This document shows positions 5,933 to 29,573 of a DNA stretch of 32,499 bases, piece after piece. A program made the position numbers and the translations under genes. The notes below the pieces were generated by a model. The model searched no databases. It was not told where the DNA came from and worked only from the letters and a program-made list of their open reading frames with translations. The stretch's first letter is position 1. The number at the start of each line of letters is the position of its first letter. Source of the stretch: an uncultured Muribaculaceae bacterium (GTDB lineage Bacteria; Bacillota_I; Bacilli_A; RF39; UBA660); assembly GCA_964551265.1 (NCBI GenBank), contig CAZKBC010000001.1, positions 1 through 32,499 of the forward strand, in the 5' to 3' direction.

Positions 5933-5950
5933 GTAAGGAGGTGAAGAAAG

Positions 5951-6253: not shown

Positions 6254-6273
6254 AAAAAGGAGGGAATAATTAT

Positions 6274-6540
6274 ATGTTAGATATTAATATAGGCGCAATT
6301 GAAGCTAAAATAACTGCTTTAAATGCTAAGAACGATGAATTAATGAGATTATTAGAACAAATTAATACAAAGTTTGAAGGTGTTCAAGGGATTGCAAGCC
6401 GTGACGTACTTAAAATAAAAGATAAATATACTGCTGCAAAAGCATCTCAAGTTAACTTGAGAGAAGCTCTAGCATCGATTGTGGCATATTTAGGAAAAGT
6501 AAAAACAAATTACGAAGAATCAACAAATACAGTAAGATAG
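6274..6540 (+). CDS. Small helical T7SS-associated protein (WXG100-like or Lap-like; F-E-G at the mid-point)
   Basis: RBS AAGGAGGG. 88 aa, all-helical composition, with FEGVQG at aa 34-39 where WXG normally sits. It is paired with the preceding 100-aa gene. Confidence 0.45.
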   Translation: MLDINIGAIEAKITALNAKNDELMRLLEQINTKFEGVQGIASRDVLKIKDKYTAAKASQVNLREALASIVAYLGKVKTNYEESTNTVR

Positions 6541-6559
6541 TTCTCTATTTATAGAGACT

Positions 6560-6602
6560 ATTTCTAATTAAATAGTCTATATTTAATTAGAAATGGTTTT
6601 TA
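6560..6602 (+). terminator. Intrinsic terminator/attenuator-like hairpin between the small esx-like genes and the giant gene
   Basis: Perfect 14-bp stem ATTTCTAATTAAAT (6560-6573) / ATTTAATTAGAAAT (6581-6594) with a 7-nt loop, followed by GGTTTTTA. The stem is almost all A-T, so it is weak. Confidence 0.45.
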
Positions 6603-6611
6603 TAAGAAAGA

Positions 6612-11609: not shown

Positions 11610-11917
11610 TGGAATCTGTTTATGTAAATTTTGATGCAATTGATTCTAGTAATCTTGCTTTAATAAAGGATTATAACAGCGTAGTAGAACAAGCTGAAAG
11701 ATTAAAACAAATAGTTGATTCTGTCGATGTAAGTTGGGTAGATAAAATAGTTAGTTCATCCGAAAAATATAAAGATTATACATTGTTGATGATAAATGAT
11801 ATTATTATGAATTTAGATGAATTAAAAAACCTAATGACTAATGTTGGAATAGCAATGGAAGAATATACTAATAATGAAACGACAGGGGAAACAAATATAA
11901 ATAGTGTAAGTTTTTAA
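11609..11917 (+). CDS. WXG100-like ~100 aa helical protein (W-V-D at the hairpin position)
   Basis: 102 aa. RBS GAGGTG, and the ATG shares one nt with the stop of the giant gene. SWVDK at aa 42-46 sits where WXG is expected. Composition is helical. Confidence 0.5.
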   Translation: MESVYVNFDAIDSSNLALIKDYNSVVEQAERLKQIVDSVDVSWVDKIVSSSEKYKDYTLLMINDIIMNLDELKNLMTNVGIAMEEYTNNETTGETNINSVSF

Positions 11918-11928
11918 TAGGAGGCTTT

Positions 11929-13341
11929 ATGCAATATACTGATTATGACAAATACAAAACAGCTATTGAGAGTACTGATTTTAATCAATTAAATACTCTT
12001 TTAGCAAATATAAACTCAATAGAAAGTGATTTTGTTAATAAAATTGATGTTGATGCTAGTTGGGAAAGTAGTGTTAAAGTAGCTTTAATTGATAAAATTA
12101 ATAGTTTTAAAACTGAGTTTAGAAAGCTGTCTTTAGAATCAACAAATTTAAACAACATTGTTACATTATCAGACGAATTAAAAACTAAAATTATTGAATA
12201 TAAGAGATTAAATACTGAAATAAACAGACTAAACGGAGAATTAAGCACTGCAGAAAGCCATAATAAAAAAGTTAATGATGCAAATAATAGCACATCGTCA
12301 TTTTCTTCAACTGGAGGTACTCAATATGGTGGAAGAGGTGGGAGTCTTGATAACTTGATTCCTGATTCTACAATTAATTCTTTAAAAACTCAAATTAAAA
12401 CAAATACTAGCAATTATAATTCTATTCAACAAGAAATAGAATCATTAATTAAAAAATTACAAGCAATTGAATTTGGAAAGGCTGGAATTGCTCAAACAGC
12501 TTCTTCTACAGGAACTACTGCTCAAGTAGGACCAAGCGGGCAAACAATTGGTAACTTAGATGCAGCTACATTAGTTGCTACTGGAAGTGGTGATTACAAC
12601 GCTATATTTGCTAAACAATTTGAACAACCAATACAATCTAATATTGAAGCTCTTCACTTAAGTCAATTAAGTATAAGTGGAAGTGCCGGATTAGCAAGCG
12701 TTGTTATTACAAATATGCCAGGAACAACAGATAAAAATCAAATGGTAGCAATAGATTTAGCAACTTTAGTATTACCTAAATTGAACGCTCAAAGAGAACT
12801 TGCTGATGAAGCTTTACAACAACAAAAGGATTTATTACAAAGAACAAAAGATCAAAATTTCAATAAGTTTTGGCCCGGACAAAATGATGGAGATATAAGA
12901 GAATTAGCGGTTGCTAGAGATAATGAAACTGATCCGGTTATAATTGCAGAATACAATAAGAAAATTGAAGCAGCTGTTGAAAAGTTTAATAAAGAAAATG
13001 CTAACTTAATACCTATTGAAAATGTATTGGAGCCAGTATTAACTACAACTGTTGCTGGAAATATTCCAATTCCACCAGCAGTTAAAGAGACTCAAGTATT
13101 GTCTTTATTTACAGAGAGCCTATATAATAGTCCTCCACCTGATACAACTATGAGAACTCTTACTGATTCAAGTGGAAATATTACAGGATACGAAATAGTC
13201 GATAATAGAGTCGAAAATTCTTCTCAAACTTATACATTAAATATAGCAAATGATGGATATCAATTATCAACAGGAGATCAAGGAACATATTTTTATCCTA
13301 AAAGTAATACTATCAACGATTTAAGTTCACCAAAAAATTAA
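11929..13341 (+). CDS. 470-aa putative T7SS substrate: WXG/LXG-like helical N-terminal ~110 aa (…DASWESSVKVAL…), Gly/Ser-rich linker, C-terminal domain of unknown function
   Basis: RBS TAGGAGG. It has no signal peptide and no TM. The N-terminal coiled-coil-like region has W-E-S at aa 44-46. No toxin or enzyme motif was recognised in the C-terminal ~300 aa. Confidence 0.5.
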   Translation: MQYTDYDKYKTAIESTDFNQLNTLLANINSIESDFVNKIDVDASWESSVKVALIDKINSFKTEFRKLSLESTNLNNIVTLSDELKTKIIEYKRLNTEINRLNGELSTAESHNKKVNDANNSTSSFSSTGGTQYGGRGGSLDNLIPDSTINSLKTQIKTNTSNYNSIQQEIESLIKKLQAIEFGKAGIAQTASSTGTTAQVGPSGQTIGNLDAATLVATGSGDYNAIFAKQFEQPIQSNIEALHLSQLSISGSAGLASVVITNMPGTTDKNQMVAIDLATLVLPKLNAQRELADEALQQQKDLLQRTKDQNFNKFWPGQNDGDIRELAVARDNETDPVIIAEYNKKIEAAVEKFNKENANLIPIENVLEPVLTTTVAGNIPIPPAVKETQVLSLFTESLYNSPPPDTTMRTLTDSSGNITGYEIVDNRVENSSQTYTLNIANDGYQLSTGDQGTYFYPKSNTINDLSSPKN

Positions 13342-15261: not shown

Positions 15262-16233
15262 TTATTTTTCAAAATATTTATTATATAATTTTAAATTACA
15301 ATCTTTACCAGTTACATATGAAAGGTTAGTAAATATTTCTTTTATATATTCAATATTTTTGTTGTCATATAATATTTTGTTTGTTTCTTCTATTAAATAT
15401 ATTGCTTTATTAATTGCAATATGATATAAATCGTCAAATGAATGATTATATTTTTCTTCTATAATGCATGGATGATTCCATGTTTTATGTTCATTATTTA
15501 AATAATCTTCTTTATTTATATATTCTTTAGCATACGATAATACTTCTACATTTATTTTGAGAAAAGGAAATAATTTATTTATTGCTTTATATATATGCTT
15601 TTTTATTGAATAAGGATCGTATCTAAGAAGATAATAAGATAAGTTCATAATTCTTAGACTTATATAATAATATTTAGATACCTTATCAACATTAAAGGTA
15701 TTGATGAAAGTATAATCTATTGCTTTATTAAGTTTTTCATCAAATCTTTTTAAGTCGAATATATATTTATGAATTTTAAATTTACTGGGTTTAATCTTTT
15801 CATTTTTATTTATCATATAATTATCTAGATATTTCTCCATCTCATCATGTTTATTTTTATATTTTAATGTTTCCTTTTTTCTTTTATTATATACTCCGGT
15901 TTTATAAAACACATATGGATGAACAGTTGAATCTAAAGAGTAATGAAGAATAAAGCCATATAAAAAATTAATAACATCTGTGTTATTTTCTAGATTATTT
16001 TCAACAATATATTTAATTAGATTATAAAAAAATAATTGAGTATTTATTCTTTGTACTTTTTTACCTAGTTTTCTAATATCTTTAGCTATATTTATATTAA
16101 AAGAATGATAAAAAAATAATATATCGGGTCCCTGAGAAAATGTTTTTAATCTATTTATATCAATATTCTTCTTACTCTTCAATTTATTATAAACATCAGT
16201 AGCAAAGTATCCATGTGTTATTGAACTTGGCAT
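15262..16233 (-). CDS. Zinc-dependent phospholipase C family protein (intracellular, no signal peptide)
   Basis: The likely start is ATG 16233 (MPSSITHGYFA…), 4 nt after the GAGGTG RBS; the track start, GTG 16245, lies immediately upstream of and overlapping that RBS. Family hallmarks recalled from clostridial homologs: N-terminal MP..ITH, QGPDILFFY, and HYSLDSTVHPYVFY. Confidence 0.55.
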   Translation of the reverse strand: MPSSITHGYFATDVYNKLKSKKNIDINRLKTFSQGPDILFFYHSFNINIAKDIRKLGKKVQRINTQLFFYNLIKYIVENNLENNTDVINFLYGFILHYSLDSTVHPYVFYKTGVYNKRKKETLKYKNKHDEMEKYLDNYMINKNEKIKPSKFKIHKYIFDLKRFDEKLNKAIDYTFINTFNVDKVSKYYYISLRIMNLSYYLLRYDPYSIKKHIYKAINKLFPFLKINVEVLSYAKEYINKEDYLNNEHKTWNHPCIIEEKYNHSFDDLYHIAINKAIYLIEETNKILYDNKNIEYIKEIFTNLSYVTGKDCNLKLYNKYFEK

Positions 16234-16286
16234 ATTACACCTCACTACTATATTAGAGTTTTTTTATTAAAAAATCAACAATTTTA

Positions 16287-16310: not shown

Positions 16311-17240
16311 ATGGCATTTAAAAAAGAATTTAAAACTCTCGATCAACAAATTGATATATTGAAGAGTAAAGGTTTGATAATAGATAGTGATGAAAAAGTA
16401 AAAAAGATATTATTTAGAGAAAATTACTTTTTTATAAACGGATATAGATATATATTTTATAAATCTCAAAATGAAAGAGAATTCATTGAGGGTTCTACAT
16501 TTGATGAGTTATATGCTTTTTTTCTATTCGATAGAAATGTAAGAAATATAATGTTTAAAAATATATTAATAATTGAAAATAATATTAAGTCAGTTATGAG
16601 TTACGTCTTATCAAAAAAATATGGTATAAAAGAAAAAGATTACTTGAAAGTATCTAATTTTACTAAAGATTTTTCAAAATCAAGAAGAGTATCTGATGTT
16701 ATAAGTAAAATTAGAAGACAAATTAAAATTAATAGTAAACAGCATAGTGCAACACTCCATTACATAACAAACTATGGATATGTTCCAATGTGGATAATGG
16801 TAAAAGTATTATCATTTGGAATAATAAGTGAACTATATTCTATTCTTAAAGATGAAGACAAAAAAGAAATTGCGGATTATTATGGTGTTCCATTTGAAAA
16901 CTTAGAGATATTCTTGGCAGTAACTGCTAATTATAGAAATTTATGTGCTCATGAGGATATATTGTTTGATCATAAGACACAAAGAGAAATACCAAACACA
17001 ATTTATCACGAAAAATTAAATATTCCAAAAGTAAGTGATGAATTTGTTTATGGAAAAAACGATTTCTTTTCAGTAATTATTATTATGAAACATATGTTAA
17101 CAGAAGAAGAATTTAGATTGTTGCTTTATGAAATAGGTTATGAAATAGATTTATTAGATGGAAAAGTTTCTTCAATTCCTTTATCAAAGATATTACATAG
17201 GTTAGGATTTGTAGATAACTGGAGAGATATATTAGAATAG
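16311..17240 (+). CDS. Abi_2 family (AbiD/AbiF-like) abortive-infection protein
   Basis: The N-terminus FKTLDQQIDILKSKGLIIDSDEKVKKILFRENYFFINGYRY matches the K.f.t.eeQi.lL..rGl.i.d…i.YYrlsgY opening of the family. The C-terminal YRNLCAHEDILFD matches the R-N-x-x-A-H signature. Confidence 0.8.
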   Translation: MAFKKEFKTLDQQIDILKSKGLIIDSDEKVKKILFRENYFFINGYRYIFYKSQNEREFIEGSTFDELYAFFLFDRNVRNIMFKNILIIENNIKSVMSYVLSKKYGIKEKDYLKVSNFTKDFSKSRRVSDVISKIRRQIKINSKQHSATLHYITNYGYVPMWIMVKVLSFGIISELYSILKDEDKKEIADYYGVPFENLEIFLAVTANYRNLCAHEDILFDHKTQREIPNTIYHEKLNIPKVSDEFVYGKNDFFSVIIIMKHMLTEEEFRLLLYEIGYEIDLLDGKVSSIPLSKILHRLGFVDNWRDILE

Positions 17241-17248
17241 GAGGATTT

Positions 17249-18340
17249 ATGAAAAAAAGTAAGAATTATATTTTAGTATCAATATTAATGTTTTTCCTAG
17301 GATGTTTAGGAATGTATTTGTTAATAAGTTTTGTACCACTTAAGACTAAAACAATAAAAGAAACTATGAATCAATATAAAATTGAGGATACTGCGATTGA
17401 AACTGCAATAGATAAAGTATATGATGCAGTTGTTGTTGTAGAATCGTTTTTAGATACAAGAAAAGCTGGAACTGGAACTGGATTCATATATAAGAAAGAT
17501 TCTAAATATGGATATATTATGACTAATGCTCATGTACTTGGAACGGGCAATAAAGCAAAGATTATTCTATCTGATAATAAAGAAGTAGACGCTAAAATAT
17601 TAGGTAAAGATGTTTTATCTGATATTGCGGTATTATCAATAGATTTAAAATATGTAAAAAATGTAGTAGAAATAGGAGATAATAGTAAGACTAAATTAGG
17701 AAATACTGTAATTACTATAGGAGCTCCTATGGGTAGTGAATATAGTGGAACCGTTACTAAAGGAATAATATCAGGTAAGGATAGGATGTTATCCGTTAGT
17801 TTAAGCAGTTATGGATCTAGTGATTTAATGATAAGGGTACTACAAACAGATGCTGCTATCAACCCAGGAAACAGCGGAGGACCACTATTAAATGTAGCGG
17901 GTCAAGTAATTGGAATAACTTCTTTAAAATTAGTGCAAAGTGAAGTTGAAGGTATGGGATTTGCCATTCCTATTGAAGATGCTATGAGATATGTAGAGGA
18001 CTTAGAAAATGGTAGAGAAATATCAAGACCATTTATTGGAATAGAAATGATAGATGTTAATGAAGTTTACTCTCTTTTCCTAGAAGGCATTATGATAAAT
18101 GAAAAGATTGAAAAAGGAGTAGTAATTACTGGTGTATCTAAAGATTCTCCTGCAGAAAAAGCGGGTTTAAAAAGAGGAGATGTTATACTAAAAATAGGTA
18201 ATGAAGAAATAGATAATAAAGCTGAACTTAGATATGAGTTATATAAACATAAAGTAGGAGATAAAATTAATGTATTTGTATACAGAGATGATAAGATAAA
18301 AGAATACAGCTTAACATTGGTAAGTAGTAACAATAAATAG
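17249..18340 (+). CDS. htrA: Membrane-anchored HtrA/DegP-type S1C serine protease with one PDZ domain
   Basis: N-terminal TM (ILVSILMFFLGCLGMYLLISF). Catalytic His (MTNAHVL), Asp (LSDIAVL) and Ser (GNSGGPLLN). PDZ region GVVITGVSKDSPAEKAGLKRGDVILKIGNEEI. Its AGGAGG RBS overlaps the stop of the Abi_2 gene. Confidence 0.9.
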   Translation: MKKSKNYILVSILMFFLGCLGMYLLISFVPLKTKTIKETMNQYKIEDTAIETAIDKVYDAVVVVESFLDTRKAGTGTGFIYKKDSKYGYIMTNAHVLGTGNKAKIILSDNKEVDAKILGKDVLSDIAVLSIDLKYVKNVVEIGDNSKTKLGNTVITIGAPMGSEYSGTVTKGIISGKDRMLSVSLSSYGSSDLMIRVLQTDAAINPGNSGGPLLNVAGQVIGITSLKLVQSEVEGMGFAIPIEDAMRYVEDLENGREISRPFIGIEMIDVNEVYSLFLEGIMINEKIEKGVVITGVSKDSPAEKAGLKRGDVILKIGNEEIDNKAELRYELYKHKVGDKINVFVYRDDKIKEYSLTLVSSNNK

Positions 18341-18358
18341 TATTCTTGGAGGTATATT

Positions 18359-20365
18359 ATGTATGAAGATTTAAAGGTATTAAAGAGAGATAACAAAAAG
18401 GCTGATTTTAATGGTGAGAAAATAGCAATTGCAATAAAGAAATCTTTTGATAGCAGAGAAGAATTCATAGATAAGTATACTGATGAAGATATCAATAAAG
18501 TATATAAAGCTGTACTAGATGATATATTTGATAATTATTTTGAAAAACCATATATTAAAGTTGAAGACATACAAGATGTAATAGAAAAGATTCTCATTAA
18601 ACTAGATTATAAGGATGTTTATGAGTCTTTTTCTAACTATAGAGATAAGAGAGCAGAATCAAGAAAAATGTTCTTATCTGAGCCTAAACAACACAAATTA
18701 TTAAAAGCAATAGAAAAGATAACATTAAAACAGGATTGGGTTAAAAAAACTAATACTACACCAAATGATGTTATATTTAATTATGGGAATATTATTTCTG
18801 AAGAATTTGCAAATGCATATTTATTAAATAGTAAATATACTCAGATGCAAGAAAGTGGACAAGTATATATAGATAATATAGAATCTATTTCTATAGGAAC
18901 AACAGAGTCATGCATTATAGATATTAACAAAATATTAGAAAAAGGATTTAGTATAGAAAATATTCACTATAAAGAGCCAAACGACATGTTGTCATATTTA
19001 GACTTAATGTCCTTGATAATAAAGAGAAATTCTGAAGATCAACATGGAGATCAAGGTATTCAAAGTTTAGATTTTATGATGAAACAAATTGTTATTAATA
19101 CATTCAAAGAAATATTTAATGATAAGTTATATGAACATCTAGATGTAAATGGATATTTAAATTTTGTAGATTTTGATTCTATTTCAAAAGATATTTCAAA
19201 ATTAAATTCTATTAATATAGATATAAGTTTATTTTATAAATATTCTAAAGAAGTACCTCAAATAAAAAACATATTAGAGAAATCATACAATAAATCTTTA
19301 GAATCAACTGATAAAATTGTTTATAAAGCATTATATAAATTCTTACATAATTCGTACTATAAGGTAAATGATAAATGTAGAATAGTTACTATTTCTTTAG
19401 GAATTGACACTTCATATGAAGGAAGAATGATTACTAGAAATTATTTATTATCTTTAGATGATAAAGTAGTAACTAAGACAGTATTTAAAATAAAAAAAGG
19501 TATAAACTATAATGTGACAGATATTAATTACGATTTATTTAAATTAGCGATATCCATAATATTTAAAGGCAATAATATAGGATTTTCTTTTATGGATTTT
19601 AAACCAAATTTTAAAGAATATAATGGTTCTTTGGAATCAGAAGTATTTTATTTTAATAATGGTTTAAGAGTAATGGAAAACATATTAAACGAAAAAGTTA
19701 ATGTTTTAGGAAGGGGATTATTATCAAAAACATATATTAATCTTGCTAGAATTGGATTAAAGAATACTAATCAAGAAGAAAATAAAGAAGAATTATTCTC
19801 AGAAATTGATAATACTTTGAATACCGTTATAGAACAATTATACGATAGATATTTAATACAAGCAGAAAGGAAAGCTTCTGAATTTCAATTTTTAATGGGT
19901 GAGAATGTTTACTTTGAATCTAAAGGTCTAAAACAAGGGGAAAAAGTAAAGAAATCTATTAGAAATGGTTTACTTGGTATTGGCATTATTGGTCTTAATG
20001 AATGTATAAAGGTATTAAAGTTTAAAATAACTAGTGATGAGATTATAGATTATATTTATAAAAAAATACATAAATATAAAAATGAGTATAACCTAAATTA
20101 TGTACTTATTGGACCAGATAAAGATTTATCAAAAGAATTCATAGATATCGATAGAGCTATATATGGAGATATTAAAGATGTAACAGATAAAGAATACTAT
20201 GATTTATATTTTAATAATATATTTGAAGATAAGAATATTACTAAATTTAATGGCGGATATTTGATTGAAAAAGAAAATACATTTAAATCGGAGGAAGAAT
20301 TAATAAAGTTTATTAAAGATCAAGATATTGGATATATAAGTATAATAAAAAAAATTGAAGATTAA
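18359..20365 (+). CDS. ATP-cone-containing NrdD (class III ribonucleotide reductase)-like protein lacking catalytic Cys and the glycyl-radical C-terminus (probable pseudoenzyme)
   Basis: ATP-cone: VLKRDNKKADFNGEKIAIAIKKS…VEDIQDVIEKILIKLDYKDVYESFSNYRDKR. NrdD-core blocks: ESCIIDINKILEKGF, VTISLGIDTSYEGRMI, GRGLLSKTYINLARIGL, VTDKEYY. The G-C-R thiyl position reads G-L-R (19661-19669). The protein ends at …DIGYISIIKKIED with no CxxC…CxxC and no RVCGY. It has only 3 Cys in total. Confidence 0.7.
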   Translation: MYEDLKVLKRDNKKADFNGEKIAIAIKKSFDSREEFIDKYTDEDINKVYKAVLDDIFDNYFEKPYIKVEDIQDVIEKILIKLDYKDVYESFSNYRDKRAESRKMFLSEPKQHKLLKAIEKITLKQDWVKKTNTTPNDVIFNYGNIISEEFANAYLLNSKYTQMQESGQVYIDNIESISIGTTESCIIDINKILEKGFSIENIHYKEPNDMLSYLDLMSLIIKRNSEDQHGDQGIQSLDFMMKQIVINTFKEIFNDKLYEHLDVNGYLNFVDFDSISKDISKLNSINIDISLFYKYSKEVPQIKNILEKSYNKSLESTDKIVYKALYKFLHNSYYKVNDKCRIVTISLGIDTSYEGRMITRNYLLSLDDKVVTKTVFKIKKGINYNVTDINYDLFKLAISIIFKGNNIGFSFMDFKPNFKEYNGSLESEVFYFNNGLRVMENILNEKVNVLGRGLLSKTYINLARIGLKNTNQEENKEELFSEIDNTLNTVIEQLYDRYLIQAERKASEFQFLMGENVYFESKGLKQGEKVKKSIRNGLLGIGIIGLNECIKVLKFKITSDEIIDYIYKKIHKYKNEYNLNYVLIGPDKDLSKEFIDIDRAIYGDIKDVTDKEYYDLYFNNIFEDKNITKFNGGYLIEKENTFKSEEELIKFIKDQDIGYISIIKKIED

Positions 20366-20375
20366 TTCAATTTTT

Positions 20376-21272
20376 TTATTTAAATAATTTTTTAGGATAT
20401 ATTCCTTTTGTTATAAGATTCTTTATTTCATTTACTACTATTTCTTTATCCTCTTTATATGTTATACCTATCCATTTAGCAGGTGTTTTTATTACTGCGA
20501 TATTAACCAATTTTTTTTGTAACATTTCATTCATTACTTCTGGTATTAAATATTCAATCTTATCAATCTTATCAATATTATTATTGAAATAATCAAATAT
20601 ATTATTTTCTAAATATTCAAATAACTTAGGAGTAAATGTAATCATATTCATTGATACTAATGTATCAAAATCAACTTCAACTTTTCTTTCATCTACAAGA
20701 GCTTTTGCTACATATCCAGTATCATTTTTTTCAATATTACTTTCAACTAACTCTATTAGTTTGTTTTTATCTCTAATACAAACTCCTCTTTTAACTGAAC
20801 CGCTCTCTGTTACAGTGTTTCCTAAAATATAACCCGCTATAGCAAAATCATTCTTTGATTTATCTATGAAATTACTTAGTAGTTCAAATGATTCTTTTCC
20901 ATAAAAGTCATCAGCATTTATTATTGTAAAATTCTCTTTTATTACATCTTTACTACAATATATTGCGTGTGCAGTACCTAGTGGTTTTGTTCTATCCTTT
21001 GGAATAGATACTTTTTTTGATATATTATCATTCTTTTGAAATACATAATGAACTTCTACTATTTTTTCAATGTCCTTACCAACTTTTTCTTTAAATAATT
21101 CAAAGTTCTCTTCTTTAATAATAAAAACGATTTTATTATATCCCGCTTTTATAGCGTCGTATATTGAATAATGAATAATAAACTCTCCATTAGGTCCAAC
21201 AGGTTCTATTTGTTTTAAACCGCCAAACCTACTGCCCATTCCAGCAGCTAATATAAGTAATGTTTTTTTCAT
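20376..21272 (-). CDS. Sugar-phosphate nucleotidyltransferase (NTP_transferase fold)
   Basis: The N-terminal LILAAGMGSRFGG.KQ is the G-x-G-[ST]-R pyrophosphorylase signature. RBS AAAGGAGG. It converges on the NrdD-like gene with only 10 nt between the stop codons. Confidence 0.7.
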   Translation of the reverse strand: MKKTLLILAAGMGSRFGGLKQIEPVGPNGEFIIHYSIYDAIKAGYNKIVFIIKEENFELFKEKVGKDIEKIVEVHYVFQKNDNISKKVSIPKDRTKPLGTAHAIYCSKDVIKENFTIINADDFYGKESFELLSNFIDKSKNDFAIAGYILGNTVTESGSVKRGVCIRDKNKLIELVESNIEKNDTGYVAKALVDERKVEVDFDTLVSMNMITFTPKLFEYLENNIFDYFNNNIDKIDKIEYLIPEVMNEMLQKKLVNIAVIKTPAKWIGITYKEDKEIVVNEIKNLITKGIYPKKLFK

Positions 21273-21421: not shown

Positions 21422-22021
21422 ATGAAAAAGAATTTAGAAGAATTTAAGAAATTGCTTATTATTGTAGACATGGTTAATGGTTTTGTAAGGGAAGGAAAAA
21501 TGTCTGATAAAAAAATTGAAGAAATTATTCCAGAACAACTTAGACTAATCGATCAATTTTTATTAGATAAAGAAGGAATAGCTTTTATTAAAGATACTCA
21601 TAATAATGGATGCAAAGAGTTTGATAGATATCCAGAACATTGTGTTAATGGAACATCTGAATCAGAATTAGTAGACGAATTAAAAGAGTATGAAGATAAC
21701 TCGTTTGTATATACAAAAAATTCAACAAGTACTATGTATGCCCCTAAGTTTATTGATGATATTAATAAGATGAAATCTCTTAGGGAAATAATTATTGCGG
21801 GATGTTGTACAGATATATGTGTCTTAAATCTTGCAATACCTCTTCAAAATTATTTTGATCAAGAAGATAGAAGAGTAGATATAATCGTTCCTACTAATGC
21901 AGTTGAAACTTATGGAGCAGATTATCATAATAGGGATGAATACAATGATATGGCATTTAAATTGATGAATCAAGCAGGAATTAAATTAGTTAAAAGATAT
22001 GGAGGAAATAATGGAAAATAA
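21422..22021 (+). CDS. pncA: Nicotinamidase (isochorismatase/cysteine-hydrolase family)
   Basis: LLIIVDMVNGF (catalytic Asp region) and IIIAGCCTDICVLN (catalytic Cys in the G..TD.CV motif). First gene of the NAD operon. Confidence 0.8.
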   Translation: MKKNLEEFKKLLIIVDMVNGFVREGKMSDKKIEEIIPEQLRLIDQFLLDKEGIAFIKDTHNNGCKEFDRYPEHCVNGTSESELVDELKEYEDNSFVYTKNSTSTMYAPKFIDDINKMKSLREIIIAGCCTDICVLNLAIPLQNYFDQEDRRVDIIVPTNAVETYGADYHNRDEYNDMAFKLMNQAGIKLVKRYGGNNGK

Positions 22022-23462
22022 TACAATGATGACAGATTTTTATGAGCTTACTATGGCACAAACATATTTTGATAAAGGAGAAAAAGATAGAAAGGTTTAC
22101 TTTGATGTATTTTATAGGTCTAACCCCTTTAATGGAGGATATGCAATATCTGGAGGATTAGATAACATTGTTGAATATATAAATAATTTCAAAATCTCAG
22201 AAGATAATATAAAATACTTAAGAAACTTAGGAATATTCAAAGAAGACTTTTTAACATATTTAAAAGATTTAAAATTTAATGGAGATATTTTTGCAATACC
22301 TGATGGTACTCCAATATTTCCAAATGAACCAATTATAACTGTAAGAGCAAATGTTATAGAAGCTCAAATAATAGAAACTGCACTTCTAACAAATTTTAAT
22401 CACGGAACTTTAGTAACTACAGCTTCAAAAAGAATTACTGAAGCAGCTAAAGGTATTCCTGTTATGGAATTTGGAGCAAGAAGAGCAAGGGGAATAGAAT
22501 CCGCAATTGAAGCTAGTAAATATGCATATATTGGTGGGTGTACAGGAACAAGTAATGTATTAAGTGGAATGAAATATAATATACCAGTAATGGGAACAAT
22601 GGCACACAGTATTGTAAGTGATGCAGATACTGAATATGAAGCGTTCTTAGATTATGCTAAGAGCAATCCCAATAATTGTTTATTTTTAGTGGATACATAC
22701 GATACATTAAAAAGTGGAGTCCCTAACGCTATTAAAGTTGCAAAAGATTATTTAATACCCAATGGTTTAAAATTTAAAGGTATAAGAATAGATAGTGGAG
22801 ACTTAGCTTATCTTTCTAAAGAGGCAAGAAAAATGTTGGATGAAGCTGGTTTTTTAGATACCAAGATTACTTTATCAAATAGTTTAAATGAAGAAGTAAT
22901 CAAATCATTAATTGACCAAGATGCAAAATTTGACTCTTTAGGAGTTGGAGATAATATATCTGCCTCTAAAGAAAGAGTTGGAGGAGTATATAAATTAGTG
23001 GCAATTGAAAAAGATAACACAATAGTGCCAAGAATAAAAGTAAGCGATGACACAATAAAAACAACCAATCCTGGATATAAAAAAGTAATTAGGTTTTTTG
23101 ATAAAGAATCAGGATATGCTCTTGGAGATGTAATTGCATTACATAATGAAACTATTCCTACTGATCAATATACTTTAATTAATCCTATTGAAGAATGGAA
23201 ACAAAAAACAATTAACAACTATGATGCTAAAAATATGATGATACCTATTTATATAAATGGAAAACAAGTATATAATGTTCCTAGTGTTAAAGATAGAAAA
23301 TCTTACTGTAATCAACAATTTGATACAATATATCCAGAGATAAAAAGAAGTTCTAATCCTCATGAATATTATGTAGACTTATCTAAAGACTTATTAGAGT
23401 TAAAGAAAAGATTAATACAAGAGAGTATTAGTTCTAGACCAAAAATAAAGGAATTAAAATGA
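22011..23462 (+). CDS. pncB: Nicotinate phosphoribosyltransferase
   Basis: MMTDFYELTMAQTYF…, …VMEFGARRARG…, and GTMAHS (phospho-His region). The likely start is ATG 22011, 5 nt after GGAGG (22001-22005). The track start 21999 is an alternative. Confidence 0.9.
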   Translation: MENNTMMTDFYELTMAQTYFDKGEKDRKVYFDVFYRSNPFNGGYAISGGLDNIVEYINNFKISEDNIKYLRNLGIFKEDFLTYLKDLKFNGDIFAIPDGTPIFPNEPIITVRANVIEAQIIETALLTNFNHGTLVTTASKRITEAAKGIPVMEFGARRARGIESAIEASKYAYIGGCTGTSNVLSGMKYNIPVMGTMAHSIVSDADTEYEAFLDYAKSNPNNCLFLVDTYDTLKSGVPNAIKVAKDYLIPNGLKFKGIRIDSGDLAYLSKEARKMLDEAGFLDTKITLSNSLNEEVIKSLIDQDAKFDSLGVGDNISASKERVGGVYKLVAIEKDNTIVPRIKVSDDTIKTTNPGYKKVIRFFDKESGYALGDVIALHNETIPTDQYTLINPIEEWKQKTINNYDAKNMMIPIYINGKQVYNVPSVKDRKSYCNQQFDTIYPEIKRSSNPHEYYVDLSKDLLELKKRLIQESISSRPKIKELK

Positions 23463-24058
23463 TTAGAAAAGAAAAGTTAGAATTAATCAAATTGTTTTAT
23501 GAAGAATTAAAAACAAAAGAAATAACGAGAGTAAATAATACAAGTTTTATTACAAGCGAAAAATATAAAATTACTTTAAATAATGGTAAAATCATTTATA
23601 GAGAGAAAATATTTAAAAGTAACAAAGATGGAAGTGCTTCTATAATTCTTCCAGTAACAAAAGAGGGAGAAATAGTTACTGTTGTTGAACCTAGAGTGTT
23701 TACTAAAGATACAGTAGCGGTAGGGTTTCCATCTGGATATATAGAAGAAAATGAAGAACCACTTAAAGGTGCTATAAGAGAACTTAAAGAAGAAACTGGT
23801 TATGTATCTGATAAATGGATAAATATAGATTCTTATTATCAAGATGAAGGATGTAGTGGTGCATATAATTATAGCTTTATAGCGTTTGATTCAGAAAAGA
23901 AATTTGAACAGAAGTTAGATCAAGATGAACTAGTTAGATATATTCTATTAAATTATGATGAATTATTTGAACTAGAAAGAATAGGATATATATCAGGAGC
24001 TAATTCAAAATTAACACTTAATAAATCTATTCCATATATGAAAGGGAGGAAAATATGA
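23459..24058 (+). CDS. Nudix hydrolase, probable ADP-ribose pyrophosphatase
   Basis: Intact Nudix box GYIEENEEPLKGAIRELKEETGY (23735-23803) = G-x5-E-x7-R-E-x-x-E-E-x-G. ATGA overlaps occur at both ends, with pncB and with nadE. Confidence 0.75.
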   Translation: MIRKEKLELIKLFYEELKTKEITRVNNTSFITSEKYKITLNNGKIIYREKIFKSNKDGSASIILPVTKEGEIVTVVEPRVFTKDTVAVGFPSGYIEENEEPLKGAIRELKEETGYVSDKWINIDSYYQDEGCSGAYNYSFIAFDSEKKFEQKLDQDELVRYILLNYDELFELERIGYISGANSKLTLNKSIPYMKGRKI

Positions 24059-24810
24059 AATTTGATGCAATGAAAGAAAAAAATAATGTAGTAAACTTTA
24101 TCAAGGACTATTATAACAAACACAACTTAGGTGGAGCTGTAATAGGTATTAGTGGAGGTAAAGATTCTGGAGTTGTTGCAGGATTATTTGTAGAAGCTTT
24201 AGGAAAAGAGAATGTAATAGGATTTACATTACCATGTCATTCAAAAGATGAAGATAGAAAACACGCTAAGTTAGTAAGTGATTACTATGGATTTAAATTA
24301 TATAACTTTGACTTAACAAATGTATTTGATTCATTTAAAGAAGAATTAACCGATATGATTGAAGTTGATTCAAAAGATACATTAAATAGTGATATTAATT
24401 TAAAACCAAGACTAAGAATGTCTACTATGTACTATATGGCAGCATTATTCTCTAGTATTAATAAAAAAACATATTTAGTAGCGGGTACTTCTAACAAGAG
24501 TGAATTATTTGTTGGATATTTCACAAAAGGAGGAGACTCAGTATATGACATATCACCTCTAGCCGACTTTACTGTTGATGAAGTAATAGAAATTGGAAAA
24601 GTATTAAACGTTCCAAAAGAAGTATTATTTAAAACTCCATCTGATGGATTATCTTCTTTATCTGATGAAGATAAGTTAGGAGTTAAATATAAAGATATAG
24701 CAAGTTATATGGAAGATCCTTTTTCAGTTGATGAAGAAATAGGTAAAAAAATTCAAAAATTACACGATAATAATGCACATAAGTTTAACCTACCAACTTA
24801 TAGGAGGTAA
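24055..24810 (+). CDS. nadE: NH3-dependent NAD+ synthetase
   Basis: PP-loop GISGGKDSGVVA. ~250 aa with no glutaminase domain. …GTSNKSELFVGYFTKGGD…. Confidence 0.9.
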   Translation: MKFDAMKEKNNVVNFIKDYYNKHNLGGAVIGISGGKDSGVVAGLFVEALGKENVIGFTLPCHSKDEDRKHAKLVSDYYGFKLYNFDLTNVFDSFKEELTDMIEVDSKDTLNSDINLKPRLRMSTMYYMAALFSSINKKTYLVAGTSNKSELFVGYFTKGGDSVYDISPLADFTVDEVIEIGKVLNVPKEVLFKTPSDGLSSLSDEDKLGVKYKDIASYMEDPFSVDEEIGKKIQKLHDNNAHKFNLPTYRR

Positions 24811-24811
24811 T

Positions 24812-25375
24812 ATGAAAACGGGAGTTTATGTAGGAAGTTTTAATCCAGTACATAAAGGACACATAAAAGTAATAAACCATTTATTAATTAATAATATAGT
24901 AGATAAAGTAATTGTAATACCAACTAAAAACTATTGGGATAAGAACAACTTAATAGATATAAATGATCGGATCAATATGTTAAAGATATATGAAAATAAT
25001 AAAATAATTATAAATACTAATTTAAATGAATTACAATATACTTACCAAGTATTAGATGAATTAAAAAAAGAATATAAAGATCTATATTTAATAATTGGAG
25101 ATGACAATCTAATTAGTTTTGATAAGTGGAAAAATGTAGATGAAATATTAAAAAACAAAGTTATTGTAATGAAAAGAAACAATATAAATTTAAATCAATA
25201 CATAGAAAAGTTTACTAATAAAGATAGTTTTATTATAGTAAATGATTATGTACCGTTAGACATTTCCTCAACTCAAATTAGAAAATTAATTACTAATTGT
25301 GAAACAAAAGACTTAGAAAATTATTTGGATAAAAAGGTGTTAGATTATATATTGAAAAACAATCTTTATCAATAA
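24812..25375 (+). CDS. nadD: Nicotinate-nucleotide adenylyltransferase
   Basis: The real start is ATG 24812 (MKTGVYVGSFNPVHKGH), 5 nt after the AGGAGG at 24802-24807. It has the (H/T)xGH motif and a C-terminal ISSTQIR motif. Confidence 0.9.
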   Translation: MKTGVYVGSFNPVHKGHIKVINHLLINNIVDKVIVIPTKNYWDKNNLIDINDRINMLKIYENNKIIINTNLNELQYTYQVLDELKKEYKDLYLIIGDDNLISFDKWKNVDEILKNKVIVMKRNNINLNQYIEKFTNKDSFIIVNDYVPLDISSTQIRKLITNCETKDLENYLDKKVLDYILKNNLYQ

Positions 25376-25378
25376 AGT

Positions 25379-26065
25379 ATGGATATAATGAAGAAGATAA
25401 TAAAAGACTTTAAGCTAATTGAATGGATTATGATACTTTCTGTAATAATATTTACAATATACTTTGCTATTACTGATAAAACTAGTCCTACTTGGTATTT
25501 GATAATAAACTCTATCGCAGCTATATCTGGAATATTCTGTGTAGTACTATGTGCAAAAGGAAGAAAAAGCCAATATATATGGGGACTACTAAATATAGTT
25601 GGTTATGTAATAATAGCGTATATAAATAAATACTATGGAGAAGTAATGTTAAATGCATTATATTATTTACCTTCTCAGTTCATAGGTTATTATTTATGGA
25701 ACAAAAACATGAGTAAAGATAAAAAGACAGTAAGTAGCAAGAAACTTAATTTTAAGCAAACAATATTATTCTTAGTAGTGTGTGTAATAGGTATATATCT
25801 ATATAAGTTATCCTTAGACTTACTTGGGGGAAAAAATACAATTCTTGATAGTGAATCAACATTTATTTCATTATTTGCAAATATATTAATGTTAGCAAGA
25901 TATAGAGAACAGTGGTTATTATGGATAATTATTGATATAATAACAGTAGTAATGTGGTTATTAGTTAATGACTTAATAATGGTTACTATGTGGTCAGTAT
26001 ATTTAATAAATGCTTTCTATGGATATTATAATTGGAGTAAAATGTATGAAAGATCAAATGTTTAA
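25379..26065 (+). CDS. pnuC: Nicotinamide riboside transporter PnuC
   Basis: ~225 aa polytopic membrane protein with Trp-rich TM helices (…QYIWGLLNIVGYVIIAY…, …WLLWIIIDIITVVMWLL…). It sits directly upstream of nadR, as is typical for pnuC. Confidence 0.8.
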   Translation: MDIMKKIIKDFKLIEWIMILSVIIFTIYFAITDKTSPTWYLIINSIAAISGIFCVVLCAKGRKSQYIWGLLNIVGYVIIAYINKYYGEVMLNALYYLPSQFIGYYLWNKNMSKDKKTVSSKKLNFKQTILFLVVCVIGIYLYKLSLDLLGGKNTILDSESTFISLFANILMLARYREQWLLWIIIDIITVVMWLLVNDLIMVTMWSVYLINAFYGYYNWSKMYERSNV

Positions 26066-27083
26066 AGTTGGTATGTATGGAGGATCTTTTGATCCTCCTC
26101 ACATGGGCCATTTTCACGACATAATAAGAGCTTCATCTATGTGTGAAGAATTATTTGTAGTAATTAGCTGGTCAGAAAAAAGAGAATCTACAACAAAAGA
26201 ATTAAGATATAGATGGATAAATAATGCTTTCAAACATTTAGATAATATTAAAATATTATTATTACAAGATACCGCTAATAGTAAAGAAGAATATAATGAT
26301 AACTATTGGGAAAAAGGGGCTCTTGAAATTAAAAAAATGATTGGAAAGAAAATCGATGTAGTATTTTGTGGATCTGATTATCGCAAAACAAAAAGATTTG
26401 AAAATCTATATGGTGAAGACAGTGAAATAATATATTTTGAAAGAGAAGAAATACCTATTAGTTCAACAGACATAAGAACTAATGTTTTTAAGCATTGGAA
26501 TTACTTACCTCAAGTATGTAGACCATACTATGTAAAAAAAGTATTGATAGTCGGAGGAGAAAGCACTGGCAAGTCAACTTTAGTAAGAAATTTAGCGATA
26601 GCATACAACACCAATTATGTTAGAGAAGTTGGTAGAGAAACTTGTGATATAGCGGGCAAAGAAGAGTTTATGAATAAAGATGATTTGGTAGAAAACTTAT
26701 TAAGACAAAAAACACTAGAACTTGAAGCATTATATAATAGTAATAAAATATTATTTATTGATACAGACTCTATTACTACTAAGTTCTATTCAAAATTTTT
26801 ATTAAACAATTCTAATGATATAAAAGAATGCAGTAATCTTGCAGATTCTATTACAGCAATTAATAATTTTGATTTAGTTATATTATTAGAACCTACTGTT
26901 AAATTCATTCAAGATGGAACTAGAAACGAAAAGATTAGAAATAATAGAGATAAATATAGTGAGCAATTAAAACAATTATTAATTGAAAGTAAAAAAGAGT
27001 ATATTTCATTATCAGGAACATATTTAGAAAGATTTAATAAAACTAAACAGATAATAAAAGATAAATTTGATATAGATGTATAG
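26046..27083 (+). CDS. nadR: Bifunctional NMN adenylyltransferase / ribosylnicotinamide kinase (NadR type, no HTH domain)
   Basis: The likely start is ATG 26046 (GGAG 8 nt upstream), which overlaps the pnuC 3' end. GGSFDPPHMGH is the nucleotidyltransferase motif. The Walker A GGESTGKSTLVRNLA marks the kinase half. Confidence 0.85.
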   Translation: MKDQMFKVGMYGGSFDPPHMGHFHDIIRASSMCEELFVVISWSEKRESTTKELRYRWINNAFKHLDNIKILLLQDTANSKEEYNDNYWEKGALEIKKMIGKKIDVVFCGSDYRKTKRFENLYGEDSEIIYFEREEIPISSTDIRTNVFKHWNYLPQVCRPYYVKKVLIVGGESTGKSTLVRNLAIAYNTNYVREVGRETCDIAGKEEFMNKDDLVENLLRQKTLELEALYNSNKILFIDTDSITTKFYSKFLLNNSNDIKECSNLADSITAINNFDLVILLEPTVKFIQDGTRNEKIRNNRDKYSEQLKQLLIESKKEYISLSGTYLERFNKTKQIIKDKFDIDV

Positions 27084-27091
27084 GAGTATAT

Positions 27092-27565
27092 ATGAAAGAA
27101 ATAATTGATTATTTAAAAAAGAACAATTTAAGAATATCAACTATGGAATCATGTACTGGAGGATTTATTGCTAATTCTATCACTAATAATGAAGGTTCAA
27201 GTGAAGTTTTTTATTTTGGTGCGGTAACATATTCAAATGAATATAAAATAAAATTAGGTGTTTCAAAAGATATAATAGATAAGTTTACTGTATATAGTAT
27301 TGAAACAGCTAAAGAAATGTCTAAAGCAATATCTATATATACAAATTCTAATTATGGTGTTGGTGTTACTGGTAAAATTAATAAAGTAGATAAGAATAAT
27401 CTTTTTGGAAATAATAATGAAATATATATTAGTATCTATGATACTATTAATAAATCTTTTTATACAAAATCATTATTAACTAAATATAAAGATAGAGAAA
27501 AAAACAAAGAGTATATTTTAGAAAATTTGATTGTTCTGTTTAAAGAGAATATAATGATATCCTAG
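27092..27565 (+). CDS. pncC: CinA C-terminal-domain / PncC nicotinamide-mononucleotide amidohydrolase
   Basis: ISTMESCTGGFIANSIT matches the …T.ESCTGG.la… signature of CinA/PncC. ~157 aa stand-alone domain. Confidence 0.8.
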   Translation: MKEIIDYLKKNNLRISTMESCTGGFIANSITNNEGSSEVFYFGAVTYSNEYKIKLGVSKDIIDKFTVYSIETAKEMSKAISIYTNSNYGVGVTGKINKVDKNNLFGNNNEIYISIYDTINKSFYTKSLLTKYKDREKNKEYILENLIVLFKENIMIS

Positions 27566-27578
27566 GAAAGAGGTATAT

Positions 27579-29573
27579 ATGAAAGAACTTGAAGCCTTAA
27601 AAAATAGAACTAATGAAAATTGGATTAATTACTTAGTTAAAACAAAAGAGAAAAACTTTAATTATGAAAGAATAAATTCATTAACTGAATTATCAAACAA
27701 ATTAGTATATAACTATGTATTAAATTCTTTTGAAGTATTAGAAACAAATAAAGTAGATGAAAAAGTATATTATTATGTTTCTGAAACTTTAAAGTGGATG
27801 GAAGTAGCAAAAGCTGGTTCTAGTAAGGATAGAAAAAAATGGACTGTAAATAATTATGATTTATATGTTCATAATATAGGTTCTTCAGAAATATATTGCT
27901 CTGAAAATGAGAACTATGATGAAGTTGTAAGGGTATTAATTAAAACTCATGGACTAATAGGTCAATATATAAGAGGGGAAGTCAACTTAAATAAAAATAA
28001 AGAATTATATGATTTAATAGAAAAAAAATTAATTACAAAAGAATTGCTTAAAGAAGTATTAATAGTATTAAATGAATGTGTTGTAAAACCAGTATCAGAT
28101 GATTTATATGAATCTATAAAAAAAGAAATAGTAATTGCAATTGAGAAAATTATTAACAATGATTTTGAAGAGGATATAGATTTATTAGATAGATTAAAAA
28201 AAATTAATAAACATTTAAACGAAGAAGATTTAATATTGATAGAAGACAATAATATTAAAAAGGCATTAAAAAAAGTATTTGATAATCTTGAACTTTGGTA
28301 TTATGAAGGAGCTTTAAAGAATTTCAGTTTTGAAGAAAGAATTAAAGTATTATTATATATTTCTAATAGTATTAGTTTTAATGATAACCATTTAACATTT
28401 GAAAAATTAATGAAAAGTATATATTTTGATTACAAAGGTAAAAAAATTGTTAATATATATAAAAAAAGAATTATAGAAAGTATGCTAAGTGAATTAAGTT
28501 TTGAAGATATAATTAATAATAATATTAAAACTAATCCTCATATAAGATTTAATTTAAAAAGAACATCAAATACGATGTTGTTTAATTTTGTCTTTTCTAT
28601 TCAAGCTACTAAATTAATAGAGTTTTGTGAAGTAGCGTACACTAGTAATTCCCTATATAATAAAGCTGTTTATATGTTATATGACTTATTTGGTTTTAGA
28701 AGAGATAGATATGATAGATTTTATAATGAAGTAAATTACTTAAATACAATGAATGCATCTACTCACAATAAAAAAATATTGATAGATTTTATAGTAGGAA
28801 AAAACGTATTAGATGTTGGACCTGGTGGAGGAGCATTATTAAACTTAATTGAAGAATCTAATAATAAATATAATGTATTTGGAATTGATATATCAGAGAA
28901 TGTAATAGAAGAATTAGCTAGGAAAAAAGAAATAGAAAATAGGAAATGGAAAATAGTAAAAGGTGATGCTTTATATTTAGAAAAACATTTTGAAAAAGAT
29001 AGCATAGATACCATTATCTATTCATCTATAATACATGAATTATATTCATATACAAATTATAATGGTAAGAAATTTAATATAGATACAGTAATAAAAACAC
29101 TTCAATCTGCATATAATATAATTCCAAAGGGTGGAAGAATTATTATTAGAGATGGTATTATGACTGAACCTATAGATCAATATAGAATTATTGAATTTAA
29201 TAATATAAAAGATTTAGAAATATTAGATAATTATTGTAATGATTTTAAAGGTAGAAAAATATCATATGAAAAAATAGATGAAAACAAAGTAAAGATGCTT
29301 ATAAATGACGCTATGGAATTTCTTTATACTTATACTTGGGGAGAAAATTCATATTCGCTTGAAGTACAAGAACAATTTGGATATTTAACCCCAACTGAAT
29401 ACATTGAATTAATTGAAACCAATTTAAAAGACTCAAGAGTAATAGAAATAAAGGCATTCTTACAAAGTGGATATGAAGAAAACTTATTAAATAAAATTTC
29501 AATATATAATGAAGATATGAAAGTAGTAAAATTACCAAATAGTACTTGTATAATAGTTATAGAAAGGAATTAA
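27579..29573 (+). CDS. 664-aa fusion: unrecognised ~390-aa N-terminal domain + class I SAM-dependent methyltransferase
   Basis: Motif I is VLDVGPGGGALL (28806-28841). Further motifs are an acidic residue after beta-2 (VFGIDISE), GDAL, DTIIYSSIIHELYSY and GGRIIIRDG. The N-terminal half contains …YVHNIGSSEIY…LIKTHGLIGQYIRGE…, which is faintly HDIG-like but not assignable. Confidence 0.55.
   Translation: MKELEALKNRTNENWINYLVKTKEKNFNYERINSLTELSNKLVYNYVLNSFEVLETNKVDEKVYYYVSETLKWMEVAKAGSSKDRKKWTVNNYDLYVHNIGSSEIYCSENENYDEVVRVLIKTHGLIGQYIRGEVNLNKNKELYDLIEKKLITKELLKEVLIVLNECVVKPVSDDLYESIKKEIVIAIEKIINNDFEEDIDLLDRLKKINKHLNEEDLILIEDNNIKKALKKVFDNLELWYYEGALKNFSFEERIKVLLYISNSISFNDNHLTFEKLMKSIYFDYKGKKIVNIYKKRIIESMLSELSFEDIINNNIKTNPHIRFNLKRTSNTMLFNFVFSIQATKLIEFCEVAYTSNSLYNKAVYMLYDLFGFRRDRYDRFYNEVNYLNTMNASTHNKKILIDFIVGKNVLDVGPGGGALLNLIEESNNKYNVFGIDISENVIEELARKKEIENRKWKIVKGDALYLEKHFEKDSIDTIIYSSIIHELYSYTNYNGKKFNIDTVIKTLQSAYNIIPKGGRIIIRDGIMTEPIDQYRIIEFNNIKDLEILDNYCNDFKGRKISYEKIDENKVKMLINDAMEFLYTYTWGENSYSLEVQEQFGYLTPTEYIELIETNLKDSRVIEIKAFLQSGYEENLLNKISIYNEDMKVVKLPNSTCIIVIERN

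Follow-up and report, generated by a model that had tools for sequence, protein, structure and literature searches.

A family of catalytically dead NrdD paralogues that retain the ATP-cone of anaerobic ribonucleotide reductase

The gene nrdD* lies on the plus strand of a 32,499-nucleotide (nt) stretch of DNA from an uncultured bacterium (hereafter referred to as the window), behind genes for an AbiD/Abi_2-family protein and an HtrA-like serine protease and facing a convergent NTP_transferase gene (Table 1). Its product, NrdD*, is a homologue of NrdD, the anaerobic (class III) ribonucleotide reductase (RNR), by both sequence and predicted fold. Here we report that NrdD* has lost every element for radical chemistry, substrate binding and specificity regulation, and cannot be an RNR. 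Its N-terminal ATP-cone and the adjoining linker are under very strong purifying selection and its barrel is under moderate selection, which sets nrdD* apart from a pseudogene. Most members of the family to which it belongs are encoded immediately ahead of a working reductase: in the largest branch, nrdD* heads a conserved operon, nrdD*-nrdG-nrdD-trxB, in which the second nrdD encodes an intact enzyme fused to a thioredoxin domain. This context, together with the pattern of constraint, suggests that the dead NrdDs probably regulate or assist the synthesis of DNA precursors.

Overall organization of NrdD*

The match of NrdD* to the Pfam NRDD profile (E = 1e-51) covers only profile positions 8–443 of 562, and its ATP-cone scores 54.2 bits against PF03477, for which the gathering score is 25.8 (Table 1). 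Every NCBIfam NrdD equivalog falls far under its cutoff, the best being NF005497 (336.9 bits versus 764), and TIGR02487 scores 150.6 against a cutoff of 326. The closest sequence in the Protein Data Bank (PDB) is Prevotella copri NrdD (PcNrdD; 8p23, E = 3e-39). An AlphaFold2 (AF2) model built from 64 sequences has a mean pLDDT of 84.9 and a pTM of 0.77, and a Foldseek search with this model returned exclusively NrdDs as its top PDB matches (P. copri, S. thermophilus, T4 and T. maritima). The best fold match is again P. copri NrdD (E = 3e-36), with a target-normalised TM-score of up to 0.82 against its core-only chains. NrdD* thus shares with PcNrdD (8p23/8p28; PMC11226230) the order of ATP-cone, linker and ten-stranded α/β barrel. 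A preliminary description of the locus had recognized the resemblance to anaerobic RNR; the Pfam, PDB and AF2/Foldseek results all agree with it, and the five peptide strings quoted there all lie at the expected coordinates. NrdD* contains exactly three cysteine residues (185, 340 and 549) and no CxxC motif, as had been counted.

Table 1 Features of nrdD* and of the adjoining genes in the window
Feature	Position	Strand	Evidence	Remark
AbiD/Abi_2-family gene	16311..17240	+	PADLOC AbiD, E 2.5e-58	First of three close co-directional genes
HtrA-like serine protease gene (Trypsin + PDZ)	17249..18340	+	Pfam	Ends 18 nt 5′ of nrdD*
Shine–Dalgarno sequence GGAGG	18348..18352	+	Read from sequence	6 nt 5′ of nrdD* ATG
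nrdD* open reading frame (ORF)	18359..20365	+		668 amino acids (aa), ATG start, stop included; non-catalytic NrdD paralogue
ATP-cone domain, residues 6–99	18374..18655	+	Pfam PF03477, E 2e-14	Predicted ATP/dATP-binding a-site
Linker helix, residues 100–133	18656..18757	+	Alignments	Invariant 'FLSEPKQHKLLKAIE'
NrdD α/β-barrel core, residues 134–618	18758..20212	+	Pfam NRDD	Retained scaffold
S184	18908..18910	+		Column of first-strand catalytic Cys (PcNrdD Cys171 / T4 Cys79)
N434	19658..19660	+	HMMER alignment to 8p23	Column of thiyl-radical Cys (PcNrdD Cys416 / T4 Cys290)
L454	19718..19720	+		Column of active-site Asn (PcNrdD Asn435, 'GRGNLS')
K588	20120..20122	+		Column of PcNrdD Glu581 ('TPAEGLS')
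C-terminal end 'GYISIIKKIED' and stop	20330..20365	+		Live NrdDs run on into Zn-ribbon/glycyl-radical domain
NTP_transferase gene	20376..21272	−		Convergent; ends 10 nt past nrdD* stop

Loss of catalytic and substrate-binding features

We compared 13 members of the clade that contains the window's NrdD* (the window clade) with 50 live relatives, column by column, using the functional landmarks of PcNrdD and the definition of the NxN substrate flap from the same study (PMC11226230). The flap is deleted in NrdD*, where the alignments show a 5-residue gap after residue 132. The column of the first catalytic cysteine, which holds Cys in at least 95% of the live sequences, holds Ser in all 13 clade members; C185, beside this serine in NrdD*, occupies a non-conserved column and is missing from most of the clade. 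At the thiyl-radical column the clade has Asp (12 of 13) or Asn (1 of 13), and no Cys occurs within residues 425–445 of NrdD*. The preliminary description had placed the thiyl position at the leucine of a G-L-R triplet (19661–19669). Its conclusion that no cysteine is present there stands, but its register is one to two residues off: both HMMER and MAFFT align YMGCRTRV with YFNNGLRV of NrdD* without gaps, and therefore the column is that of N434, with the absence of Cys unaffected. N434 falls within a motif, YFx(D/N)GxR(I/V), that recurs across about 90 dead cluster representatives of the wider family.

The sixth-strand residue of a functional NrdD is an Asn in the formate type and a third Cys in the thioredoxin type. 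This column (Asn435 in PcNrdD) carries Asn in the live sequences and Leu, Phe, Ile, Met or Val in 13 of 13 clade members, so the loss of the active-site Asn earlier read from the change of GRNNLG to GRGLLS is borne out. PcNrdD Glu581, which bridges the substrate and the flap (PMC11226230), is replaced by a lysine. Furthermore, the specificity-site motif QAMEAFxHN is replaced in NrdD*, including its Q and E, the loop 2 residues R305 and Q309 of PcNrdD are replaced and accompanied by a 3-residue deletion, and the phosphate-binding loop is lost. The NrdD* reading frame stops a few residues past 'IGY', leaving profile positions 444–562 unmatched; the Zn-ribbon and the glycyl-radical loop (RxxGY) are absent, as had been deduced from the stop after the GYISI block. 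Thus, unlike PcNrdD, NrdD* lacks the NxN flap, the residues equivalent to Cys171, Cys416, Asn435 and Glu581, the specificity site, loop 2, the Zn-ribbon and the glycyl-radical loop. All these features, from the flap to the glycyl-radical domain (GRD), are lost in 13 of 13 clade members.

The C-terminal end point is identical in all 19 known members of the clade. A frameshift near 20365, or a hidden C-terminal domain, is ruled out by the convergent gene 10 nt away, by the common end of the homologues and by the sequence downstream of the nrdD* stop, in which no frame encodes anything GRD-like. The cone and barrel scaffold had been described as kept; both are indeed retained, but less is kept than had been supposed, the substrate and specificity sites being gone.

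Retention of the ATP-cone and selection

The cone itself is intact, as had been proposed. The nucleotide ligands K7, R8, D9, Y83, R87 and R91 of the PcNrdD cone correspond to K9, R10, D11, Y94, R98 and R102 of NrdD*, which are invariant in the clade. Live relatives show roughly 40 columns within residues 1–124 that are conserved to at least 95%; the clade retains all of them (at least 85%), the sole exception being a conservative Leu-to-Ile change at residue 121. Past residue 124, many live-invariant columns carry other residues in NrdD* that are themselves invariant in the clade (Q125, E175, S184, L219, G233, T344, F432, G435, E515, E528, F630 and K664), and these replacements indicate a constraint of NrdD*'s own.

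We estimated dN/dS only from pairs with dS of about 0.2–0.8, as distant pairs of the main family branch (described below) are saturated and were discarded. In the best unsaturated pair of the window clade (L015 versus L016, dS 0.78), nrdD* has a dN/dS of 0.107 overall, with 0.015 for residues 1–124 and 0.127 for residues 125 to the end; the neighbouring genes in this clade have values of 0.033 (AbiD) and 0.046 (HtrA). In the main branch, unsaturated pairs gave 0.13 for NrdD*, 0.06 for NrdG, 0.03 for the live NrdD and 0.08 for TrxB, and nearly all invariant columns of the alignment lie in the cone and linker, with only about six in the core, which are also conserved in live NrdDs. Independent assemblies yielded 18 further short NrdD* proteins (635–668 aa, 52–61% identity) in a homologue search, after which come full-length NrdDs of about 788 aa with 43% identity. 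It is on these dN/dS values and this conservation that the exclusion of a pseudogene rests.

A widespread family of dead NrdDs

We searched 1.84 billion cluster representatives exhaustively with HMMER and obtained 1448 matches. From the best 150 matches we aligned the full-length (560–870 aa) 50%-identity representatives to a live reference; about 90 of these roughly 105 sequences are dead and GRD-less, with lengths of 600–715 aa, and only about 12 have a complete catalytic signature. The family comes from gut, rumen and digester bacteria, uncultured Bacilli/Mycoplasmatota of low GC content. Its dead members share a characteristic cone ('VVVKRSGQRVxFNGxKIAIAIK…RKTINVEDIQDIIE') and a conserved (I/V)EYFS(D/N)GxR(I/V) at the former thiyl loop, and the window's NrdD* fits these family traits, with an ATP-cone followed by a barrel, YFx(D/N)GxR, loss of the flap and an end shortly after 'IGY'. 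The sole member with a source name, P0125, is annotated 'anaerobic ribonucleoside-triphosphate reductase [Bacilli bacterium]'; no other name was found on any dead member checked.

Several members are only partly decayed. The flap and first Cys persist in P0070; P0128 has kept the Gln and Glu of the specificity site together with the loop 2 residues, P0127 the C-terminal Zn-ribbon without the Gly motif, and P0180 the NxN flap, the specificity site and the Asn, without both Cys residues and the GRD. Such a graded series suggests stepwise or repeated loss of function. In a Mollicutes metagenome-assembled genome (MAG), two tandem nrdD-nrdG pairs (L008, 10001–15958) encode NrdDs of 787 and 697 aa, each with its own activase, and NrdD paralogy would on this account be common in the lineage from which the dead family arose.

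A conserved operon with a live reductase

A metagenome scan (human gut, rumen, biogas and sludge) provided 80 loci of 257 relatives, which together with the locus L042 make 81 loci, 36 of them dead and 45 live. At the dead loci, nrdG lies directly downstream of nrdD* wherever at least 650 nt of downstream sequence is available (27 of 27; gap −47 to +7 nt), a second, intact NrdD follows in 22 of 22 loci with at least 3.2 kb, and TrxB in 18 of 19 with at least 4.3 kb. Live loci consist of a plain nrdD-nrdG pair (44 of 45). The genes that precede nrdD* differ from locus to locus, and 114–760 nt of intergenic sequence separate them from it; therefore, nrdD* is the first cistron of the conserved unit.

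The locus L042, whose dead NrdD (P0134) is 36% identical to that of the window, links the operon to the window. Up to nrdD*, its gene order matches that of the window (rplM-rpsI…Abi_2-HtrA-nrdD*); downstream come nrdG, then a gene for a 772-aa NrdD and one resembling thioredoxin reductase. The 760-nt gap between htrA and nrdD*, the leader of the operon, contains a full-length match to the Rfam PGK RNA cis-regulatory motif (RF03040, 88.6 bits; 9527–9619, plus strand). When riboswitches or other conserved leaders were sought 5′ of nrdD*, this was the only match, and it did not recur in the 18 other loci scanned.

The second NrdD of L042 (12686–15004) matches the whole Pfam NRDD profile (1–562 of 562, E = 2e-193) and bears its own ATP-cone, a 'CCRLRL' finger loop, a Zn-ribbon and the glycyl motif 'SRITGYYRPV'; its closest solved relative is T. 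maritima NrdD. In L042 and 22 other loci, a C-terminal thioredoxin/glutaredoxin domain is fused past the GRD of the live operon enzyme. With this fusion and the thioredoxin-reductase-like gene that follows, the live NrdD appears to have a built-in reductant relay.

Placement of the window clade

Members of the window clade were found, in a scan of a genome collection with cone-specific patterns that gave one match per genome, in uncultured Mycoplasmatota/Bacilli MAGs. In neighbour-joining trees (Poisson correction, 60 bootstraps), the clade falls inside the dead assemblage whether core or all columns are used (60 of 60 bootstraps; long-branch attraction is possible), and its cone groups with live relatives (59 of 60). 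The shared L042 locus, truncation point, deletions and thiyl-loop motif nevertheless speak for one origin, with a cone that has evolved slowly.

The clade keeps the gene order rplM-rpsI, a variable slot, Abi_2, HtrA-like protease, nrdD* and convergent NTP_transferase, and the Abi_2-HtrA-nrdD* trio is conserved across it as well as in L042. In the window, abiD and htrA are 8 nt apart and htrA and nrdD* 18 nt apart; htrA and nrdD* are probably co-transcribed. The main-branch operon is not present at the window's nrdD*: the NTP_transferase gene, rightly described before as convergent and 10 nt away, sits where L042 and the main branch have nrdG-nrdD-trxB. Because L042 has both the operon and the upstream synteny of the window, the window clade is an orphaned branch. 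The preliminary description had also reported no nrdG nearby; the window indeed contains none, and in this NrdD* differs from PcNrdD with its cognate radical-SAM activase NrdG, but, given the operon of the main branch, this is a derived peculiarity of the window clade and not a property of the family. The nearest live NrdDs are found at other loci, with the order uvrC-HTH-nrdD-nrdG.

Many third-party-annotation (TPA) MAG records (L014, L016–L018, L021, L022 and others), which are Mollicutes-like and have about 25% G+C, bear the title 'uncultured Muribaculaceae bacterium', apparently a default or erroneous organism label from a bulk submission.

Possible functions of NrdD*

We favour, at roughly even confidence, the reading that NrdD* is a non-catalytic subunit that responds to ATP/dATP and serves class III RNR in an accessory or regulatory role. 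ATP or dATP is predicted to bind at the cone, and NrdD* would then act on the class III RNR system through nucleotide-dependent oligomerisation or cone–cone contacts, as a pseudoenzyme partner comparable to yeast Rnr4 or the trypanosome prozyme. In the window clade, in which nrdD* would have separated from the nrd genes to its present place behind abiD and htrA, NrdD* may act in trans on an RNR encoded elsewhere or may have been co-opted as a free-standing ATP/dATP sensor. The pattern of constraint agrees with the earlier idea of a '(d)NTP-pool sensor or regulator', which is plausible. Among the things that NrdD* might sense or regulate, class III RNR is the likeliest in view of the family context, which speaks for this rather than for a free-standing sensor. 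A more detailed version, which we put forward only tentatively, is that NrdD* would be a trans-acting ATP/dATP-sensing subunit that controls the thioredoxin-dependent class III RNR by cone-driven hetero-oligomerisation and that, in orphan lineages freed from the operon, would serve as a stand-alone dATP/ATP sensor for another pathway, possibly that of the AbiD-like protein or HtrA.

Several observations weigh against an accessory role tied to RNR. A search of about 230 kb of window-clade loci for nrdG, a second nrdD and trxB found none, and three other dead subgroups also lack adjacent nrd genes; the persistence of such orphan clades without an adjacent RNR weakens an obligate partnership. NrdD* descends from a P. 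copri-like, formate-type NrdD and the live operon enzyme is T. maritima-like, with about 25% identity between them; because the two belong to different subclasses, a classical heterodimer is not obviously favoured. The live operon NrdD has its own ATP-cone, and hence does not need one in trans. Finally, no NrdR box with at least 13 of 16 matches was found 5′ of nrdD* in 33 loci, compared with 9 in 660 background windows, although this is a weak negative.

The main alternative for the window, though a rather unlikely one, is that NrdD* senses (d)ATP/ATP on its own and passes the signal to something other than RNR, for example by controlling the AbiD-like protein and the HtrA-like protease in stress or abortive infection. 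The tight spacing of the abiD-htrA-nrdD* trio, the strong Shine–Dalgarno sequence, the clear AbiD match and the conservation of the trio in the clade and L042 would suit such a sensor, as would the selection seen in the window clade even though this clade and the three other subgroups have no nrd genes beside nrdD*. However, none of the other 35 dead main-family loci in the metagenome scan has Abi_2/HtrA upstream; only L042 does, with its 760-nt gap, and the association therefore looks like inherited gene order. Moreover, the trio lies in core synteny by rplM-rpsI, not in a mobile defence island, and NrdD* itself has no PADLOC match. Membership in a defence system was likewise rejected, on this lack of a match and on the confinement of the AbiD association to one lineage.

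It is less likely still that NrdD* is a structural partner that pairs 1:1 with the live NrdD for folding, stability or activation, and not for sensing. The operon and its apparent translational coupling with nrdG-nrdD agree with such a pairing, and PcNrdD dimers consist of one active and one inactive monomer (PMC11226230), a half-of-sites behaviour of class III RNR that a dead subunit could exploit; the barrel, moreover, is under purifying selection. Nevertheless, the strongest constraint falls on the cone and not on the barrel, the dimer interface has not kept its specificity-site and loop 2 residues, the live partner is of a different NrdD subclass, and orphan clades exist.

We consider it improbable that the barrel is a neo-functionalised enzyme that catalyses another, non-radical reaction on nucleotides. 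It is retained under selection, and YFx(D/N)GxR, conserved family-wide, places an acidic or amide residue where the Cys had been; yet the few invariant core columns of the main-family alignment (about six) are also conserved in live NrdDs, and the phosphate-binding loop, the NxN flap and Glu581 are lost.

A decaying relic of a once-functional nrdD, whether a pseudogene or a sequencing or assembly truncation, is effectively refuted: the loss of all catalytic features, the faster evolution relative to the live enzyme and the position of P0128 beside a divergent HTH_26 gene, as at live nrdD-nrdG loci, which suggests decay in situ, are outweighed by intact ORFs of the same length in 19 proteins of 52–61% identity from independent assemblies, by a dN/dS of 0.11 overall and 0.015 in the cone, by lineage-specific invariant residues, by about 90 divergent clusters, by the strong Shine–Dalgarno sequence and by the convergent gene at 10 nt, which excludes a hidden C-terminal domain.

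Comparison with known systems

Dead RNR paralogues are known as a general kind, as yeast Rnr4 and the herpesvirus R1 homologues attest. Rnr4, the β′ subunit of class Ia RNR, is a dead paralogue retained as a partner of the active enzyme. In Trypanosoma brucei, the prozyme of AdoMetDC is likewise a dead paralogue, retained as a partner that enables or regulates the active enzyme (PMC5201418). These two offer the best functional analogy for nrdD* in an operon with a live nrdD, although the proteins and the RNR class differ, NrdD* is connected to its candidate partner by operon linkage in the main branch, and that partner is of another NrdD subclass.

NrdR resembles NrdD* in carrying an ATP-cone, which in NrdR is an ATP/dATP sensor that alters oligomerisation and output and is linked to RNR. 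However, NrdR is a protein of about 150 aa with an N-terminal Zn-ribbon DNA-binding domain that represses nrd operons, whereas NrdD*, at 668 aa, begins its cone at residue 6, has no Zn-ribbon or DNA-binding domain, and continues into a barrel of about 540 aa. Herpesvirus R1 homologues such as MCMV M45 have the RNR large-subunit fold, lost their catalytic residues and were repurposed; they differ from NrdD* in being of class I, in belonging to a eukaryotic virus, in acting in host cell-death signalling and in having no cone-centred constraint. GrcA (YfiD), the 'spare-part' glycyl-radical protein of pyruvate formate-lyase, is a Gly domain without a barrel. NrdD* is the reverse, a barrel without a Gly domain, and the two have a split architecture in common; as NrdD* also lacks the thiyl Cys, trans-complementation cannot restore catalysis.

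Literature searches found no description of dead or GRD-less NrdDs, in line with the earlier remark that no function has been described for such a protein, and the passages searched in Burnim et al. 2022 contain no mention of such sequences. What appears to be new here is a widespread, cone-bearing, dead class III subunit that is operon-linked to a live enzyme.

Other genes of the window

The AbiD/Abi_2 gene lies in core synteny beside ribosomal protein genes and is under strong purifying selection (dN/dS 0.033), which one would not usually expect of an abortive-infection gene. What lies between rpsI and abiD varies, and this slot may be a small integration hotspot: it holds a Zn-dependent phospholipase C gene in the window (15262–16245, minus strand) and a DUF6884 + GIY-YIG gene in the P0019 lineage (L004, 3170–4192), and is empty in L001. 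Further upstream, 1077–13341 resembles a type VII secretion locus. It encodes an EssC-like FHA + FtsK/SpoIIIE protein of 1536 aa (1077–5687), a 100-aa ORF (5951–6253), ORFs of 102 and 470 aa without a Pfam match, and a 1665-aa protein (6612–11609), also without a Pfam match, which could be a secreted effector or toxin.

Downstream of nrdD*, 21422–27565 and 29575–30390 form a complete NAD salvage cluster (nicotinamidase, NAPRTase, NUDIX, NAD synthase, NadD-like, PnuC transporter, NadR-like and CinA), which is kept at this place in several clade members. The closely syntenic L041 has a NUDIX + NrtR-type winged-helix regulator downstream, the positional counterpart of which in the window is the ORF at 29575–30390. 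Between the two parts of the cluster, 27579–29573 encodes a 664-aa protein with class I SAM-methyltransferase domains that occurs at the same position in clade relatives.

Implications

The structural account of the allosteric control of anaerobic RNR is recent, dating from 2024–2025. If NrdD* indeed acts as a regulatory subunit in its own right, RNR regulation would gain a further layer, and the glycyl-radical enzyme superfamily would have its first described pseudoenzyme. The graded, partly decayed NrdDs provide a natural experiment on RNR loss of function. Furthermore, because the dead P0125 is named as a reductase, metabolic reconstructions of uncultured Bacilli/Mycoplasmatota from gut, rumen and digesters may over-credit these organisms with dNTP synthesis.

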